In this document: positions 1-53,653 of the stretch, piece by piece
Layout: every line of letters starts with the position of its first letter
How positions within the stretch are numbered: position 1 is the first letter of the stretch
Assembly: GCA_039621445.1 (NCBI GenBank)
Contig: CP154954.1
Coordinates: 32,961,455-33,025,454 of the forward strand
Direction of reading: 5' to 3'
Source of the DNA: Euglena gracilis
Taxonomy: Eukaryota
DNA: 64,000 nucleotides
Notes under the pieces: model-generated
What the model was told of the DNA's origin: nothing
The model's input: only the letters and a program-made list of their open reading frames with translations
The model's database searches: none
Position numbers and translations under genes: made by a program

Positions 1-3000
1 CACTGGGCACCACAAAACAGGGGGGACAGCGACAGGTACAACAGCTTCACCTGACGAGGGTTCGCCCTTGCGATACAGCGTTTCGTGTCGCACCAACTTC
101 GGCAGACGGGGGTTTCCACACGGTCGGCGGAGGTGGTAAACCGTCATTTTCAAAACGAAAAATGTCGGTTTACCCAGAAAAAAACCCGGGGGTCGAAAGC
201 AGTGGTACTAATTTTGGTACCACGGGTTCCAGCTGACGGGTGCGCCGCCCCGTCAAGTGATGGCGACACATTTGGTCAAAAAAGAATGTGCAGGTGCGTA
301 AAAAGCCACCAAAAATGAAAAGTGCATTCCCGGCCGTTTAAATAAACATTCCAAGACACACTTCTTAAAGGCGTCAAAGCAAAGCTTAAAATTTAATAAA
401 ATCCCACTTCTTTTGTTGCCTTGCTTTTTTTGTGTCCTTTTTGAGCAAATAAAAAGAAAACTAACCAGAAAAAAGTTCAGAAATGGGAGAAAATAAAATA
501 ATAATAAAATAATAAAATATAAATAAACGGGAACAAATGAAATATAAATACATCTGTTCAAACCTTCAAAAGTTAAACTACCGAGAAAAAAGTCGATGTC
601 GATGGGGGGGGCAGGCACCCAGGAAAGCGAGGGGCACACCGTGGCTCGGGACAGGCTGTGGCGCACTGTCGTTCATCCAGGCATGAACCGTGCGGCTGGC
701 GTCGGTTACAGGGCGCTGACCGGTCTTCCCCCAACCTCAACGTGCCTTGGCCTGTTTTTCAGTCGTTTCGGTTGGTTCGTTGGCTCAGCCGGTACAGCGT
801 TTCCAATGCATCATAATGGACGGCGAAAAAGAAACGATGAAAATTTCAGATCAGCGGAAAATGCGGTATGCAGAAGATGGCACGAGCGGAAAATCGAATG
901 TTGAAAAGATGCCAAACCTTCTGTCTGTGAAATTCAAATTTTAAACTGAATTAGGAGTCACCAAAACAGAATTCTGAATTTTCAAACAACAAGTGGTGAA
1001 CTTCACAGAAAGCGTGATGAATTTCTATAAAAACTTTTTGGAAGGACTGGGAGGGTGGTTCTCTGGGTCAACCCTGGGTGTTTGGGTCAGGTGGGGGCGG
1101 CAGGCTGGGCGGGGCCCCCGGCCCCGGCATCGGCGACGGGGCAGGCGGCGGTGGGTTGCGGCGGAGGTACTCCTCCATGGGGGTGGGGGCGGCGGGGTCC
1201 GGTGGGGGCCGGTCCAGGCCATGGGCCGCCATCGCCTGCGCCAACACCGTCGACACGTTGACGGCCGGCCACCGGGCGAGCGCTTTGCTGGGGGGGGGGG
1301 GGGGCAGGGCGGTCCACCACGAAGAAAAGAAAGCCCGTCTTCTTCCGCCGTCGCCCAGCCTTCTTCCCCACTCCACACCCGTCGTCGTCATCACGGGGGG
1401 GAGTATGACAAGCACCGCCCGGGGCAGGTACCTCTCCTCGTCAAACGCCACCTCCACCCGGCCGTACAGCTCCGCGTCGTCGTCCTCCAGCTGGGGGGGG
1501 ACAATGCCACGGGGGCAGGGGACAGGGGAGGTGGCACATAACCATTCCAACCATTGATTCACTGGGTGAACCCCTCCCCCCGGGGCGGCACGTTTCCCCC
1601 AGGGCCAAACCCACCCATCCATCCACCCACTTGTCGCAAAAACCCACCCACCCACAATCGCCCTACGGGGGTCAACCACCCGCCCACCCACCCAGAATCC
1701 AGCCAAAATCGCCTCAAAAACTTCTCTGACCCGGCCGTTGGCCAGGCAGAAAATCCGACCCTATCGCACCCCACCCCCAGGGGAGTCCACGGGCACAACC
1801 CACTCACCCACTCTCGAAACTCCCCCCGGGGGGGGTCACACAAGTGTTAAATGAATCTCTGGTTCCAACCTCATTTGATGTCCCTGCCACAACTTTGACT
1901 TCAGCGACACAGACAAATTATGGATGCTCCAGAGGCCACCACTGCTTGCGAGTGCATTCGTTCGGCTGATGGGACCTCCACCATAACCCCCCCCCCCAAA
2001 TAACCTGGCGGGGTGCCAGGCTATTGGATCCAACTTTTGGCCCTGCCCCCCCCCCCCCCCGCCAGGCTATTTGGGCCCTTTTCTCAGCGCCATAAAGGAA
2101 TTTTGCCTGAAAAGGGGGTGCCAAGTTACTGGAACCAAGTTTTTTCCTCCTGCCAGGTTATCCGGCCACTGCCAGGAGCAAGGGCCCCGCCAGGTCATTT
2201 GGGAGGGAGGTTTACGATTGCTTACCGACCCCCCTGCGGGGGAGGGTCACTTTCCACTTTCAAAAAACTGGTCAATCACTTCCTGTCCCCCCCTGGGTTA
2301 GCCACTCGGGCCAAAAACGCTGAAAATAAATGGATTTTGGCCAAACCACCCCCCCAGATTTCTGGTGTCTTCGGCGCAGGGTGACCACTTTCGGTCATTC
2401 CTGGCCAACCCCCCCCCCCCAAGGTCTAACAGTCACCCCGGGGGGGGGGGTGCTCGGACACCTTAAGCCATGGTACGGGGGGGGGGGAGACAACATGGAT
2501 CCTCAAAAATGATGCAAAAAAAAGCACAAATGAACACAAATAATGCAGAAACCGCAATTTGCATGCGTTGTCCGTCAGGAGCTCCCCCGGGATGTACATT
2601 TTCTGCTGGAGAGGATTTTTTCACCTCTGCGGGGTATTTTCATAAAAATATGCAGTTTTATTGACCAAAAATGCAAAAATGACAGGAATTTGACAAAAAT
2701 TTTGTTCCCAGGGGAAATTGGGGCCGAAATGAGGAATTTTCATAATCAGAAAAAAAAAACGTTAACGCAAAAAAAACTGAATAACCGCACCGGGACAAAC
2801 ACAAAAAGAGCCTGAAATCTTGCCAAAATTGAAAAACACACAAAAAAGCAAAAAAAAAACAAACGCGCTTGTGCCCCCCCCCTGTTTGGTAAGATCCCCA
2901 CCCGCCGAACCCCCACATGCAAACAGTGGGTGCCCCATCCTTCCAGATGAAGCTGAACCCCAATACAATACAGTGTACGATGGTTTACACATTTGGAGGA

Positions 3001-50900: not shown

Positions 50901-53653
50901 AATATTGAGCTGATTTGGGGCTTTTGGGCTTTGTTTGGTCAAAATGAGCAAGTGCAAAATATTTCAGGTCATTTTACACCATTTTGGTTTTTTGTGTGCA
51001 TTTTTGTAGCCGATGCTTTATGCCATTCTTTATCTTTGTGACCATTTTCGCTCATTTGAAAAGATTTTCGAAAAAATTCACAAAGTAATTTGTTCAATAG
51101 ATTCCATGGGCATCTATGCGATACAAGTTGGCGCTGGATTCCACATGTGTGGAATGTGCTTTCGGTTCTGTGCTTGCTCACTTTGCACACTTTTGCTCAT
51201 TTTTGGGGTCATTTCACATATCTCTGATGACAACTTTCAAAACCACCCACCTGGATAATATTTATCATTCTCATTCCGACCCTAATTGGACGTGTTTTGA
51301 TGAGACTTGCCACATTTGAGGCATTTTGGGGTGTTTTATGACCCTTTTTTGTGCCATTTTATGACATTTTTTTTGGACATAGAGGTGACATAGAGGTAGA
51401 GGTTGAGGTGGAGGTGGGTCAGATAAAGGTAGAGGTTTTGACCTCGACCTCTACCTCTATCCAGCCCTAGTCTAAATCTCCTGGCGGTCCACAAATCAGC
51501 ATACCATAGATTGGTGACGGCGCTGTTTCTGCCTTGGTCCAATATTGGGCAAAGGGGACGAAGCAAAAATACATTTAAAAAAAAAATGTGGCACCAATGT
51601 GGCACGTTATCCGTCAACAAAAACAAATTGACAAAACTCGGCGAAACACGAAAGACACGGGCTCATTGAGGCGTCCATAGGCAAAAAGAAAAGTGCAAAC
51701 ACACACAGATATACAACAGCCAAGACGAAGGAAATGTGGCATTGCTTGGCACCAAAGCACAATTGCTTCAACCTGCCATGTGGTTTGCTAGGAAGACAAA
51801 ATTAAGCCAACCAAAATTTATGCACCGCAGTGCAAAAATAAAATTAAAAGGTGAACAACAGACAATTCTCTCTTGAAAAACCCTGGTCTGAGCAAATCAG
51901 GAAATCCACCCCATTTCCAGAGGTGTTTTTTAATGCGCAAAAATGCAGAGCTGCTAAACCCCACAGATATTTGTTCCACAGTTTCGTGTTTGGTCGTTTG
52001 TTGGATTGTCGTCTGGGTTTTTTGAGCTCCATTTGGGCGACGTTGGGGTTTTGTGTCATGGGGCTGCCGTAAATCCATAAAAATTTAGGAACCCTTTCTT
52101 TCGCCGTTTTTTTTTAAAGCCAATAATAAAGAAAATGTGGAGTGAAAATAAATAAAATTGTCATAAATTGTGTAAATTGAATAAAATGAATAAAATTGCA
52201 TTTTAAATGCAATTTTTTAAATATTTTTGTGGTTTTTCTAGTATTGCTTTGAAGAAAAAATCTTGTGTCAAAAATCTTGATCTTTGAATTGTTTTCGATA
52301 TTTTTTTCTTTGCTCATAAAGCTAAGAAAAGATCCTAAAATCCAAAAAAAAAACATATAAAAAAACACAAATGACATTTTGGGGTGCGCTTTGTGCAGTT
52401 TTGCCCGCACTGGGCTGGGCGGGAGGGAAACCCCCCACCTTTAAGTCTCCACCAGCCTTGGTGGGGTGGGGGGTGAGGGACCCGGCTTCTGCTCAAGGGT
52501 CTGCAGTACCCCTCAGCAGGGGGGGGGGGGCTCGACTGCAGCTAGTTCAAATTTGGCTTGTGGACCCCTGGGGGGGGGGGGGTGCGCCAGCAGGGCCAGT
52601 TTGTGGAATTTTTTTGACAGCCCAAAGCCTGCCCCAAATGACCGTTTTTGGCAATTCGGGATTTTTTTGAACAAAATTGGCCCAACAACGCCCTGAAAGT
52701 CCCATTTCTGCCTCTGGCACACAACGCCGGAGGAGCTTTTTTCCCCCATTTCAGGGGGTTTCAGCCGAGGGGTCCAGCCCGTGGCTTTTTTCCCCATTGG
52801 CTCGGAAAATGGTTTGCCTAAAGACCCCGGTCCTTAAGCAACACTGTGCGGGGGACAGTGCCCCGGGGCTTTGCTCCCCCCACCTTCCCCCGCACAGGCC
52901 CCGGTCCGCCGGCCGGCCCCCCGGCGGAGGAGTGGGGCGGCGTGGCGGACCGCATCCGGCGGATGCAGCGGCGGCGGGAGACCCAGGCGCGGCGCACCGC
53001 CCAGCGGGAGGCGCAGCTGCCCCCGGAGAAGCGGCTGGAGGCCCTGCACCGGAGGCTGGACCAGCAGTTCGCCCGGGGAGGGGCGGTCTGTGGGTGGGTG
53101 GGGGCGTGGGTGGGGGTGGGGGTTTGGGTGTGGTGTGGGGGTGGTGAGAATGGGGGTGGGGGGGTGGGGGTGGGTGCCTGAGCGGGGGCGCAGCCTTCTG
53201 AAAACATCTAATCTGATTCCCCCAAATGAGGGTCTAAAGTAAATGCTTGATGAAATTTGGTAGTCCACCCTTGTCCCTCAGAGCAAGTGAAAATTTTTCA
53301 CGCATTCCTAGCCTAGGATTTATGTTCCAAACCATTGAAAGCCTTGTTCTTTTCTCGCACATTTTTTCTGTGCCAGAAATGCATTGACTCCTTGCATTTT
53401 TTTGTTGATTAAACTTGTCTGGTTTCCGATGTTTAGTGTTTTCAACGTTTTCGGTTTTTATTTTCAAAGTTTCAGGCACCGCTTTAGATTTTGGGGGTGG
53501 ATTGTGTTTTCGCCCAGCCCCGGCCTCAATGGCCCACCACCAGGAATGTCTGTGGCCCAAACAATCCCTGGCAAGCTGCCTCAGCCGCGGCTGCGCCTGA
53601 TGGCACCAACAGCATTGTGCGGAGCACCTGGTGGAAATTGGACACAAGCGTGA
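44935..53653 (+). pseudogene. 5'-truncated inverted copy of the LRRIQ1-like 3' end, including the terminal exons
   Basis: 44935-48337 is the reverse complement of 1-~3393 and begins mid-exon. A 1-nt deletion at ~44980 shifts the frame. After a GT-AG intron (47677-52897) come GPGPPAGPPAEEWGGVADRIRRMQRRR..RLEALHRRL (52898-53070) and a last exon 53528-53653 with TGA. This may instead be an assembly or haplotype artefact. Confidence 0.7.

Follow-up and report, generated by a model that had tools for sequence, protein, structure and literature searches.

Nonconventional introns of a Euglena gracilis SNAPC3 gene and the 8-bp duplications of inverted-repeat elements in and around it

The window, i.e., the whole 64,000-nucleotide stretch of Euglena gracilis DNA analysed here (contig CP154954.1, positions 32,961,455 to 33,025,454), carries a gene for SNAPC3 (snRNA-activating protein complex subunit 3), which was mapped exon by exon with P0001 (eukprot EG_transcript_14475), a transcript-derived E. 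gracilis protein of 384 aa with PF12251 that aligns over 40725-27463 in 13 exons. Once 12 introns are removed from the minus strand, the spliced model is identical to P0001 at 381 of 384 residues, and four of its exons match Pfam SNAPC3 at consecutive profile positions. Eleven introns are nonconventional, with borders other than GT/GC-AG, and all 11 must be removed to obtain the 384-aa transcript protein; the remaining one is a GT-AG intron. Six of the nonconventional introns had been proposed in an initial annotation, and the peptides DSPTFFC, FNQLSVRLG and VDLSLEGL, which their removal was claimed to rebuild, are all present in P0001. The other five and the GT-AG intron were absent from that annotation and were revealed by the mapping. 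For each intron, between 1 and 14 boundary positions are compatible with the protein, and for each of the six proposed introns this set includes the coordinates given earlier. The gene and its introns are as follows.

27460-40725, minus strand: SNAPC3 gene, 13 exons and 12 introns
39678-40663, minus strand: nonconventional intron 1, newly found; ATC-CAG...CTG-CCGGC at one of five protein-consistent positions; 7-bp helix in the 3+5 register; follows the strict published code
37242-39625, minus strand: nonconventional intron 2, proposed earlier; composed of element 37247-39622 (2376 nt) and 8 further nt; the flanks repeat 8 bp exactly
35699-37193, minus strand: nonconventional intron 3, proposed earlier; CCC-CAG...CTG-GCGGC; ends match at 13 of 16 positions
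35044-35576, minus strand: nonconventional intron 4, proposed earlier; its single protein-consistent boundary is the 3+5 one
34481-34982, minus strand: nonconventional intron 5, newly found; not 3+5; contains element 34518-34822; best helix 7 bp, across the junctions at offsets -3/-1
33345-34440, minus strand: nonconventional intron 6, newly found; GAA-CAG...CTG-GGGCC; contains element 33906-34205
31740-33234, minus strand: nonconventional intron 7, newly found; 10-bp helix in the 3+5 register; lacks the CDG/CH'G motif
30641-31619, minus strand: nonconventional intron 8, newly found; GCC-CGG...CAG-ACCCC, middle pair mismatched
30289-30558, minus strand: conventional GT...AG intron of the spliced model
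29938-30169, minus strand: nonconventional intron 10, proposed earlier; 8-bp helix at 3+5, motif GCG/CGC
29415-29850, minus strand: nonconventional intron 11, proposed earlier; GCC-CTG...CAG-CCGGC, 9-bp helix
27575-29277, minus strand: nonconventional intron 12, proposed earlier; GGC-CAG...CTG-GCGGA

The initial annotation had described 15 stem-ended intervals (13 on the minus strand and two on the plus strand), and this observation is confirmed. Read in gene orientation, all 15 begin with 3 nt followed by a helix arm and end with a helix arm followed by 5 nt (6 nt at 3123-3308 and 7147-7547), and each join keeps one or more frames open. As introns, six of them are verified by the match to P0001, whereas the other nine have the geometry without RNA or protein support; for the leucine-rich repeat (LRR) gene, the exon searches returned no match. 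Instead of the three genes originally named, the intervals fall in at least four loci. The nine candidates are listed below.

704-1079, minus strand: candidate interval, ACC-CAG...CTG-TAACC
1300-1425, minus strand: candidate interval outside the strict code (CCG/CTG, exon begins with C); one end, CAGGGCGGTCC, resembles the 34518 family
3123-3308, minus strand: candidate 3+6 interval in the LRR gene; 7/8 flank repeat; interior and both termini related to the 55046 family
3452-3726, minus strand: candidate interval, GGC-CAG...CTG-CCGCC
5360-5728, minus strand: candidate interval outside the strict code; its 3+5 helix is CAA/TTG
7147-7547, minus strand: candidate 3+6 interval, GTC-CGG...CCG-GCCAAT; the join yields a regular leucine-rich repeat unit
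43033-43433, minus strand: candidate interval, CCC-CAG...CTG-TCCCC; next exon begins with T; located before the SNAPC3 start, hence in another gene
47264-47612, plus strand: candidate interval, paralogous copy of 704-1079 within an inverted segmental duplication
53071-53527, plus strand: candidate interval, GCC-CGG...CCG-GCCTC

The relationship between 704-1079 and 47264-47612 differs from what had been proposed. The two lie within a 3.4-kb inverted segmental duplication (1-3393 versus 48337-44935) that includes exons, i.e., the second is a segmental gene duplicate and not a transposed copy. Between the paralogs, the interval differs by five frame-breaking indels, and the adjoining exon by one 3-nt indel.

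The intervals are best explained as nonconventional introns of the type known from Euglena (Nomura et al., 2025, PMC12501133; Milanowski et al., 2014, 2016), and the window is euglenid nuclear DNA. Like the published introns, they have non-GT-AG borders, a CAG/CTG helix at +4 to +6 and -8 to -6, spacers of 3 and 5-6 nt, a purine opening the next exon and GT-AG introns in the same gene; no difference was found in the introns themselves. The splicing code 5'-N3CDG-/-CH'GN5-6|R has already been tested by knock-in in the former work, which reports spacers of 3 and 5-6 nt, an essential CAG/CTG motif and the splicing of synthetic introns (Nomura 2025, PMC12501133). The same source gives 61.2% as the share following the strict code in E. 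agilis. In the window, the helix opens at +4/-6 (3+5) in 10 of the 11 verified nonconventional introns; seven of these 11 follow the strict code N3-CDG/CH'G-N5|R and four lack the CDG/CH'G motif, and five of the eight independent candidate intervals without transcript support also follow the strict code. The downstream exon begins with a purine at 17 of 19 junctions, the exceptions being 1300-1425 (C) and 43033-43433 (T). According to a review (PMC11282704), nonconventional introns of Euglena are excised as full-length circular RNA by a non-spliceosomal route.

Besides the introns, the window contains short inverted-repeat elements flanked by direct repeats (target-site duplications, TSDs).

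33906-34205, no strand assigned: inverted-repeat element of 300 bp whose ends agree at 14 of 16 positions, bordered by the TSD gtccacat (exact over 8 bp); related copies at 54631-54817 and 52703-52841
34518-34822, no strand assigned: 305-bp element with an exact 8-bp TSD, ccccgaag; terminus CAGGGCGGTCCTTAAG (15/16); family copies at 39866-40129, about 60927-61227 and about 16958-17232
39866-40129, no strand assigned: 264-bp older copy of the 34518 family, TSD 6/8
55046-55545, no strand assigned: element of 500 bp bordered by the TSD ggtgccac (exact over 8 bp); its terminal inverted repeat (TIR), CAGGGAATTTCTTAAG, is perfect over 16 bp

Three families are present in the 64 kb, each with three to five copies, and the dispersed copies share 60-76% identity. 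Their common 16-bp terminus, CAGG-N6-CTTAAG, was matched 11 times where 2.9 would be expected, and 11 was reached in none of 100 shuffles. In a window-wide scan, 1395 CAG...CTG inverted-repeat pairs in which 9 or more of 12 bases are complementary were collected and their flanks compared for exact identity. Exact flanking repeats were found five times at k=8 and never at k=7 or k=9; at k=8, the 40 Markov controls averaged 0.03 and never exceeded 1, and shifted-flank controls gave 2, 0, 0 and 0. Four of the five pairs are solid, namely the three small elements of multi-copy families, with CAGG-N6-CTTAAG termini, and the verified intron 37242-39625; the fifth (55237-57919), which has a GC-only repeat and interleaves with 55046-55545, is doubtful. 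A second scan, blind to the terminal motif (exact 6-10-bp repeats, TIR of at least 10/12), likewise returned five pairs at k=8 (the three small elements and two microsatellite or palindrome artefacts) and none at k=7 or k=9. All clean elements with TIR and TSD in that scan have CAG/CTG ends and duplications of exactly 8 bp. Thus, the peak of flank identity at k=8 anticipated by the initial annotation exists among the inverted-repeat elements of the window, whereas no such enrichment is seen when the RNA-supported introns are taken together.

The verified intron 37242-39625, with a length of 2384 nt, equals the 2376-nt element plus 8 nt, and its flanks are identical at 8 of 8 positions. It has no relatives within the window; the interval that does belong to a family, 3123-3308, is without RNA proof. 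No single element, therefore, ties transcript support, a perfect duplication and family membership together. The full direct repeat at 37242-39625 extends over 13 nt (-6 to +7), so that 14 boundary positions yield an identical mRNA. A repeat of 13 rather than 8 nt would fit the notion that such border repeats are not target-site duplications but were left behind when a double-strand break was repaired with captured filler DNA. Milanowski 2016 (PMC4770533) interprets in this way the eight-nucleotide direct repeats of a nonconventional intron that E. agilis gapC gained recently, and of all E. agilis introns, the conventional among them, 84.4% are reported to be accompanied by short repeats (PMC12501133). 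However, the three small elements all have repeats of exactly 8 bp, lengths of 7 and 9 being absent, and a 16-bp terminal inverted repeat together with internal sequence common to unrelated loci indicates a mobile family. Repair scars are consequently a highly improbable explanation.

We favour instead the view, to which we assign a probability of roughly 0.7, that some nonconventional introns are derived from transposon insertions and that cutting at offsets of 3 and 5 nt removes the element together with one copy of its duplication. In this mechanism, the intron ends pair through a CAG/CTG-type helix, and cleavage of the pre-mRNA falls 3 nt before the 5' arm and 5 nt (sometimes 6) past the 3' arm, both as in the published Euglena code. 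Some introns, at least, would have started as insertions of small TIR transposons with CAGG...CCTG ends that duplicate 8 bp of their target. Because 3 + 5 = 8, cutting at these offsets would remove the element and exactly one copy of the duplication, and the pre-insertion mRNA would be restored whichever way the element is oriented. By extension, most nonconventional introns may have arisen from such insertions, and the cut offsets may have been matched to the duplication length by co-adaptation and not by coincidence.

How far the traces of such an origin extend can be judged from the intron flanks. The initial annotation described TSD-like similarity grading from 8/8 to undetectable. Its upper end was recovered, with 8/8 at 37242-39625 and 7/8 at 3123-3308; the other 16 independent introns, with 0 to 5 of 8, are at chance level. 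Two of 18 introns reach an identity of at least 7/8, where under the null 0.3% of pairs would do so (permutation P about 0.003), while the mean over all 18 is 3.28 versus 2.85 (P about 0.09, i.e., chance level) and that over 10 verified introns is 3.0/8 versus a null of 3.1. With the mean at chance, a transposon origin is visible for only two of the 18 introns, and since flank identity is not enriched in the RNA-supported set, the proposed decay of the intronic TSD parts with age is an assumption and not a demonstrated process. Flanks at chance in 16 of the 18 introns would also fit a reading in which the offsets of 3 and 5-6 nt reflect no more than the geometry of the splicing machinery, their sum equals the 8-bp duplication by coincidence and the elements are one among many kinds of sequence that chance to satisfy the code. 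Splicing proceeds normally in synthetic introns that lack a duplication, and a 6-nt spacer works as well (Nomura 2025, PMC12501133), so that the nonconventional machinery needs just a helix and the spacing; the four verified introns without the CDG/CH'G motif point in the same direction. Nonetheless, a coincidence appears rather unlikely in view of the CAG/CTG ends and exactly 8-bp duplications shared by all clean elements of the motif-blind scan, the verified intron that equals an element plus 8 nt and the newly gained E. agilis intron with its 8-nt repeats (PMC4770533).

As for the source of the elements, the initial annotation assigned them to hAT. Two hallmarks of that superfamily, 8-bp TSDs and CAGGG-type termini, are present, and on TSD length and termini the elements would be placed in hAT. 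For hAT elements, 8-bp TSDs, YARNG termini and a target consensus (position 2 T, position 7 A) are described (PMC3014272), and the window elements share with the non-autonomous members an exact 8-bp duplication and short TIRs of 8-16 bp. Four of the five young elements begin with CAGGG, which fits YARNG, and 33906-34205 begins with CAGGC; among the intron 5' ends, seven of 19 fit. The target consensus is not clearly recognizable, with five of eight positions agreeing in four duplications, and with T at position 2 in four and A at position 7 in nine of the 19 mature junction 8-mers. Nor can a transposase be linked to the elements: of 20 ORFs, comprising the 10 longest of the window and another 10 from within two long candidate elements, none contains a Pfam transposase domain, although a 64-kb window need not carry an autonomous copy. 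The elements could thus be transposon-derived and belong to another superfamily that duplicates 8 bp, e.g., Merlin, the sole DNA transposon that we found reported for E. gracilis, where two families, both with 8-bp TSDs, are described (PMC8101967); our literature search found no report of hAT in Euglena. However, Merlin terminal repeats begin with GG in all described families (PMC8101967), whereas the window elements begin with CAGG directly after the duplication, and four of the five young ones fit the YARNG terminus of hAT. A source in Merlin or another non-hAT superfamily is, therefore, quite unlikely.

Several components of this picture are already in print, including the 3+5/6 rule and the ideas of a MITE origin and of insertion tolerance. 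In the published Euglena work considered here, the spacers are treated as N and their sum is not related to a duplication length; a link between 3+5 and an 8-bp target duplication was not found in the literature searched, and the window supports it. The closest parallel is found in introner elements, MITE-like DNA transposons from which spliceosomal introns arise in Micromonas, Aureococcus and dinoflagellates (PMC11282704). These are likewise short, non-autonomous, equipped with TIRs and target duplications, located in genes and removed from RNA, and the duplication helps to define the cut. However, it is the spliceosome that cuts introners, at GT/AG-like sites derived in part from the duplication (3 bp in Micromonas; PMC11282704), whereas in the window removal is nonconventional and set by the helix of the element ends, with offsets that sum to the 8-bp duplication.

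The initial annotation further suggested that the splicing activity is tuned to hAT ends and acts as a host tolerance system, an interpretation that is partly supported. In its fullest form, nonconventional splicing would be matched to one group of cut-and-paste transposons: it would recognise the helix formed by CAGG...CCTG ends, and, as the offsets of 3 and 5 sum to the 8-bp duplication, any exonic insertion, in either orientation, would be erased from the mRNA without a scar. We regard this broader proposal as tentative and hold it at somewhat less than even odds. If it is true, the cutting activity may be related to the element's own enzyme.

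The window, whose DNA is eukaryotic and GC-rich, contains a SNAPC3 gene. A 45-aa exon translation is 98% identical to P0001 (eukprot:EG_transcript_14475, 384 aa), a transcript-derived E. gracilis protein, and 80% identical to P0002, a protein from a related transcriptome; both contain the SNAPC3 domain (Pfam PF12251), and four adjoining exons consecutively match profile positions 63-96, 97-124, 126-167 and 171-198. On this evidence, the sequence belongs to the nuclear genome of E. gracilis or of a very close relative. Thirteen exons were located with P0001 (tblastn) on the minus strand, from 40725 to 27463. 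Enumeration of all boundary pairs that reproduce P0001 fixed the intron lengths and left 1-14 positions for each intron, and the final model encodes 384 aa, of which 381 are identical to P0001. This model requires 12 introns (11 nonconventional and one conventional), hereafter called verified. Six of the intervals that the initial annotation had listed as introns from the sequence alone are introns of SNAPC3 with exactly the coordinates it gave; for 35044-35576, these coordinates are the sole protein-consistent solution. The other verified introns are as follows.

SNAPC3 introns absent from the initial annotation
39678-40663, minus strand, nonconventional
34481-34982, minus strand, nonconventional
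33345-34440, minus strand, nonconventional
31740-33234, minus strand, nonconventional
30641-31619, minus strand, nonconventional
30289-30558, minus strand, conventional GT...AG intron, the lone one beside the 11 nonconventional introns

In gene orientation, all 15 intervals of the initial annotation follow the proposed 3+5 arrangement, i.e., 3 nt, a helix arm, the other arm and 5 nt, except that 3123-3308 and 7147-7547 have a final spacer of 6 nt (3+6 variant). Of the 11 nonconventional SNAPC3 introns, 10 have a helix that opens at +4/-6. The exception, 34481-34982, lacks both the CAG/CTG motif and a helix in 3+5 register; the best helix that it can form, of 7 bp, lies across both junctions. 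It encloses an element of 305 bp whose 8-bp duplication is perfect. By knocking in introns of natural, mutated and synthetic sequence, Nomura et al. (2025; PMC12501133) established the code 5'-N3CDG-/-CH'GN5-6|R, which they report for 61.2% of E. agilis nonconventional introns. In its strict form, this code is present in 7/11 verified introns and in 5/8 independent candidate intervals, and a purine is the first base of the downstream exon in 17 of 19. Pairing of the N3 and N5 overhangs to leave a 2-nt overhang of the RNase III type was considered and rejected, since their bases are mostly not complementary. AT-rich microsatellites (27030-27170 and 27710-27900) lie partly within the verified intron 27575-29277.

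The other nine intervals are candidate introns. Some belong to genes at 43 kb and 53 kb, and others lie in a leucine-rich repeat (LRR) gene (1 to approx. 8600, minus strand), for which three exon queries returned no transcript match, a blank that constitutes weak evidence. The 3' part of this gene, with three putative introns, is carried by an inverted segmental duplication of 3.4 kb (1-3393 vs. 48337-44935, 95% identity, 44 kb apart), in which approx. 1.7% of aligned positions differ and small indels are numerous. This duplication takes in the flanking exons; therefore, 47264-47612, which the initial annotation called a copy of 704-1079, is a paralogue within the duplicated segment rather than a transposed copy. 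A 1-nt deletion at approx. 3344 may break the second copy of the LRR segment.

In an unbiased test, the whole 64-kb window was searched for CAG...CTG pairs separated by 40-4000 nt whose terminal bases are complementary at 9/12 positions or more, and the k-mer just before each pair was compared with that just after it. Among the 1395 pairs obtained, exact flank matches numbered 1, 2, 0 and 5 for k=5, 6, 7 and 8, and 0, 0 and 1 for k=9, 10 and 11. At k=8, the 5 observed compare with a mean of 0.03 (maximum 1) in 40 Markov-chain controls and with 2, 0, 0 and 0 in shifted-flank controls. A motif-blind scan (any ends, at least 10/12 complementary, low-complexity sequence filtered) also yielded 5 matches at k=8 and none at k=7 or k=9; three of the five correspond to solid elements, and the remaining two are artefacts of microsatellites or palindromes. 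The following elements were identified.

Inverted-repeat elements with exact 8-bp flanking repeats
33906-34205, 300 bp, flank repeat gtccacat, termini 14/16 matched
34518-34822, 305 bp, flank repeat ccccgaag, termini 15/16 matched
55046-55545, 500 bp, flank repeat ggtgccac, perfect 16-bp terminal repeat
37247-39622, 2376 bp, flank repeat ctcgtccc, 8-bp perfect terminal inverted repeat (TIR)

Adding 8 nt to the last of these gives precisely the verified intron 37242-39625, at which the direct repeat extends over 13 nt (-6 to +7). Direct subterminal repeats (37407-37501 and 39437-39568) are found near both its ends. The pair 55237-57919 (8/8 repeat gccggccg) is doubtful as an element because its repeat is GC-only and it interleaves with 55046-55545; it may represent a chance match or a rearranged element. 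The sole k=11 match, 16806-17473, is a CAG...CTG pair (9/12) with an exact direct repeat, gccagctccgc.

The small elements belong to dispersed families. The terminus CAGG-N6-CTTAAG is common to them and has 11 matches in the window (at most one mismatch) vs. 2.9 expected, a number reached by 0 of 100 shuffles. Sensitive blastn detected relatives with 60-76% identity.

Relatives of the small elements
34518 type: 39866-40129 (flank repeat 6/8), approx. 60927-61227, approx. 16958-17232, plus fragments
33906 type: 54631-54817, 52703-52841
55046 type: 26570-26694, 53943-54050, candidate interval 3123-3308 and its paralogue

The candidate intron 3123-3308 has interior sequence and both termini in common with the 55046 family, and its flank repeat is 7/8. 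Three elements (33906-34205, 34518-34822 and 39866-40129) reside within SNAPC3 introns and, read along the transcribed strand, conform to the splicing code as well; they could be excised separately, as nested introns. For the single termini at 6875, 58435, 54817, 26694, 53943, 61227 and 2236/46115, no convincing partner with a duplication was found. Other repeats in the window include a cluster at 48961-50559 of short inverted and direct repeats based on the palindromic motif TGCGCA / GTGCGCAT, and long simple-sequence arrays that match one another (17886-18420, 20566-20861, 24394-24922 and 61329-61487).

The initial annotation had also proposed, as a genome-wide check on RNA-supported introns, a peak of flank identity at k=8. 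In the 64 kb examined, this holds for the window elements (5 at k=8, 0 at k=7 and 9) and not for the introns as a set. Exon positions -5 to -1 plus intron +1 to +3 were compared with intron -5 to -1 plus exon +1 to +3, with mismatched pairs as the null. The 10 verified introns in 3+5 register have identities of 1, 8, 3, 0, 4, 5, 4, 1, 2 and 2 out of 8 (mean 3.0/8 vs. null 3.1, P 0.62); with eight more introns (4, 4, 7, 4, 2, 2, 4 and 2), the mean for all 18 independent introns is 3.28/8 vs. 2.85 (P approx. 0.09). The preference for C|R at both junctions is compositional (match at -1 in 12/18, null 12.0). Nonetheless, identity of at least 7/8 occurs in 2/18 introns vs. 0.3% per pair in the null (P approx. 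0.003). Thus, the intron set as a whole is without flank-repeat enrichment, whereas a small subset has real repeats. Decay of the duplications with age, which the initial annotation invoked, is a hypothesis.

With regard to superfamily, hAT elements with 8-bp duplications and YARNG termini have been described, the listed termini starting with CAGGGG or CAGTG (PMC3014272). Four of the five young elements found here start with CAGGG, and the hAT target consensus is matched only in part by the duplications and junctions of the window. The only 8-bp-duplicating transposon found reported for E. gracilis in the literature searched is Merlin (PMC8101967), the termini of which start with GG, unlike those of the window elements. 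It is reasonable to call the latter hAT-like, since the 8-bp duplication and the CAGGG starts of four elements fit and the Merlin GG termini do not; membership in hAT is a candidate assignment. A Pfam search of 20 stop-free ORFs (the 10 longest of the window and 10 within the two long candidate elements) found no transposase domain; two matches in the ORF scans (E approx. 0.03) were dismissed as below the cut-off.

The introns and the 3+5/6 rule have been described before, and transposon origin and host tolerance have also been published as general ideas. Milanowski et al. (2014) proposed an origin from miniature inverted-repeat elements (MITEs) and pointed out that transposons had yet to be identified in euglenids; Nomura et al. 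(2025) proposed a MITE-like origin together with machinery mitigating harmful insertions, and a 2024 review (PMC11282704) described TIRs and "TSD-like" repeats in Euglena nonconventional introns. The word hAT is absent from the text of these three papers. Our literature search found no paper joining Euglena, hAT and target site duplication, and among those on Euglena, miniature inverted-repeat elements and target site duplication, only the 2024 review concerns these introns. The link between 3+5 and the 8-bp duplication was not found in the literature searched and is supported by the independent test within the window. Independent published support comes from a nonconventional intron confined to one E. 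agilis strain (Milanowski et al. 2016; PMC4770533). Its borders carry eight-nucleotide direct repeats, the longest among the introns in that set, which the authors interpreted as a scar of double-strand-break repair. In the window, the conservation of terminal repeats and the existence of families with several copies favour transposition over such repair.

In the published mechanism, which the introns of the window follow, a helix forms between the intron's own ends, and the RNA is cut 3 nt upstream and 5-6 nt downstream of this helix. Ends of this kind, together with exact 8-bp duplications, are found in the window elements, and one of the verified introns equals an element plus 8 nt. As 3 + 5 = 8, excision would remove the element plus one copy of the duplication and would thus restore the original mRNA, whichever orientation the element has. 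A single extra base in the element would be compatible with the 6-nt spacer variant, for example at 3123-3308.

As the window supplies actual elements whose termini are defined and whose duplications are exactly 8 bp long, as well as a verified intron built in this way, the MITE hypothesis of 2014 is now directly testable. Should the match between 3+5 and duplication length extend to the whole genome, it would clearly exemplify an RNA-processing rule of the host that is fitted to the insertion footprint of a transposon.
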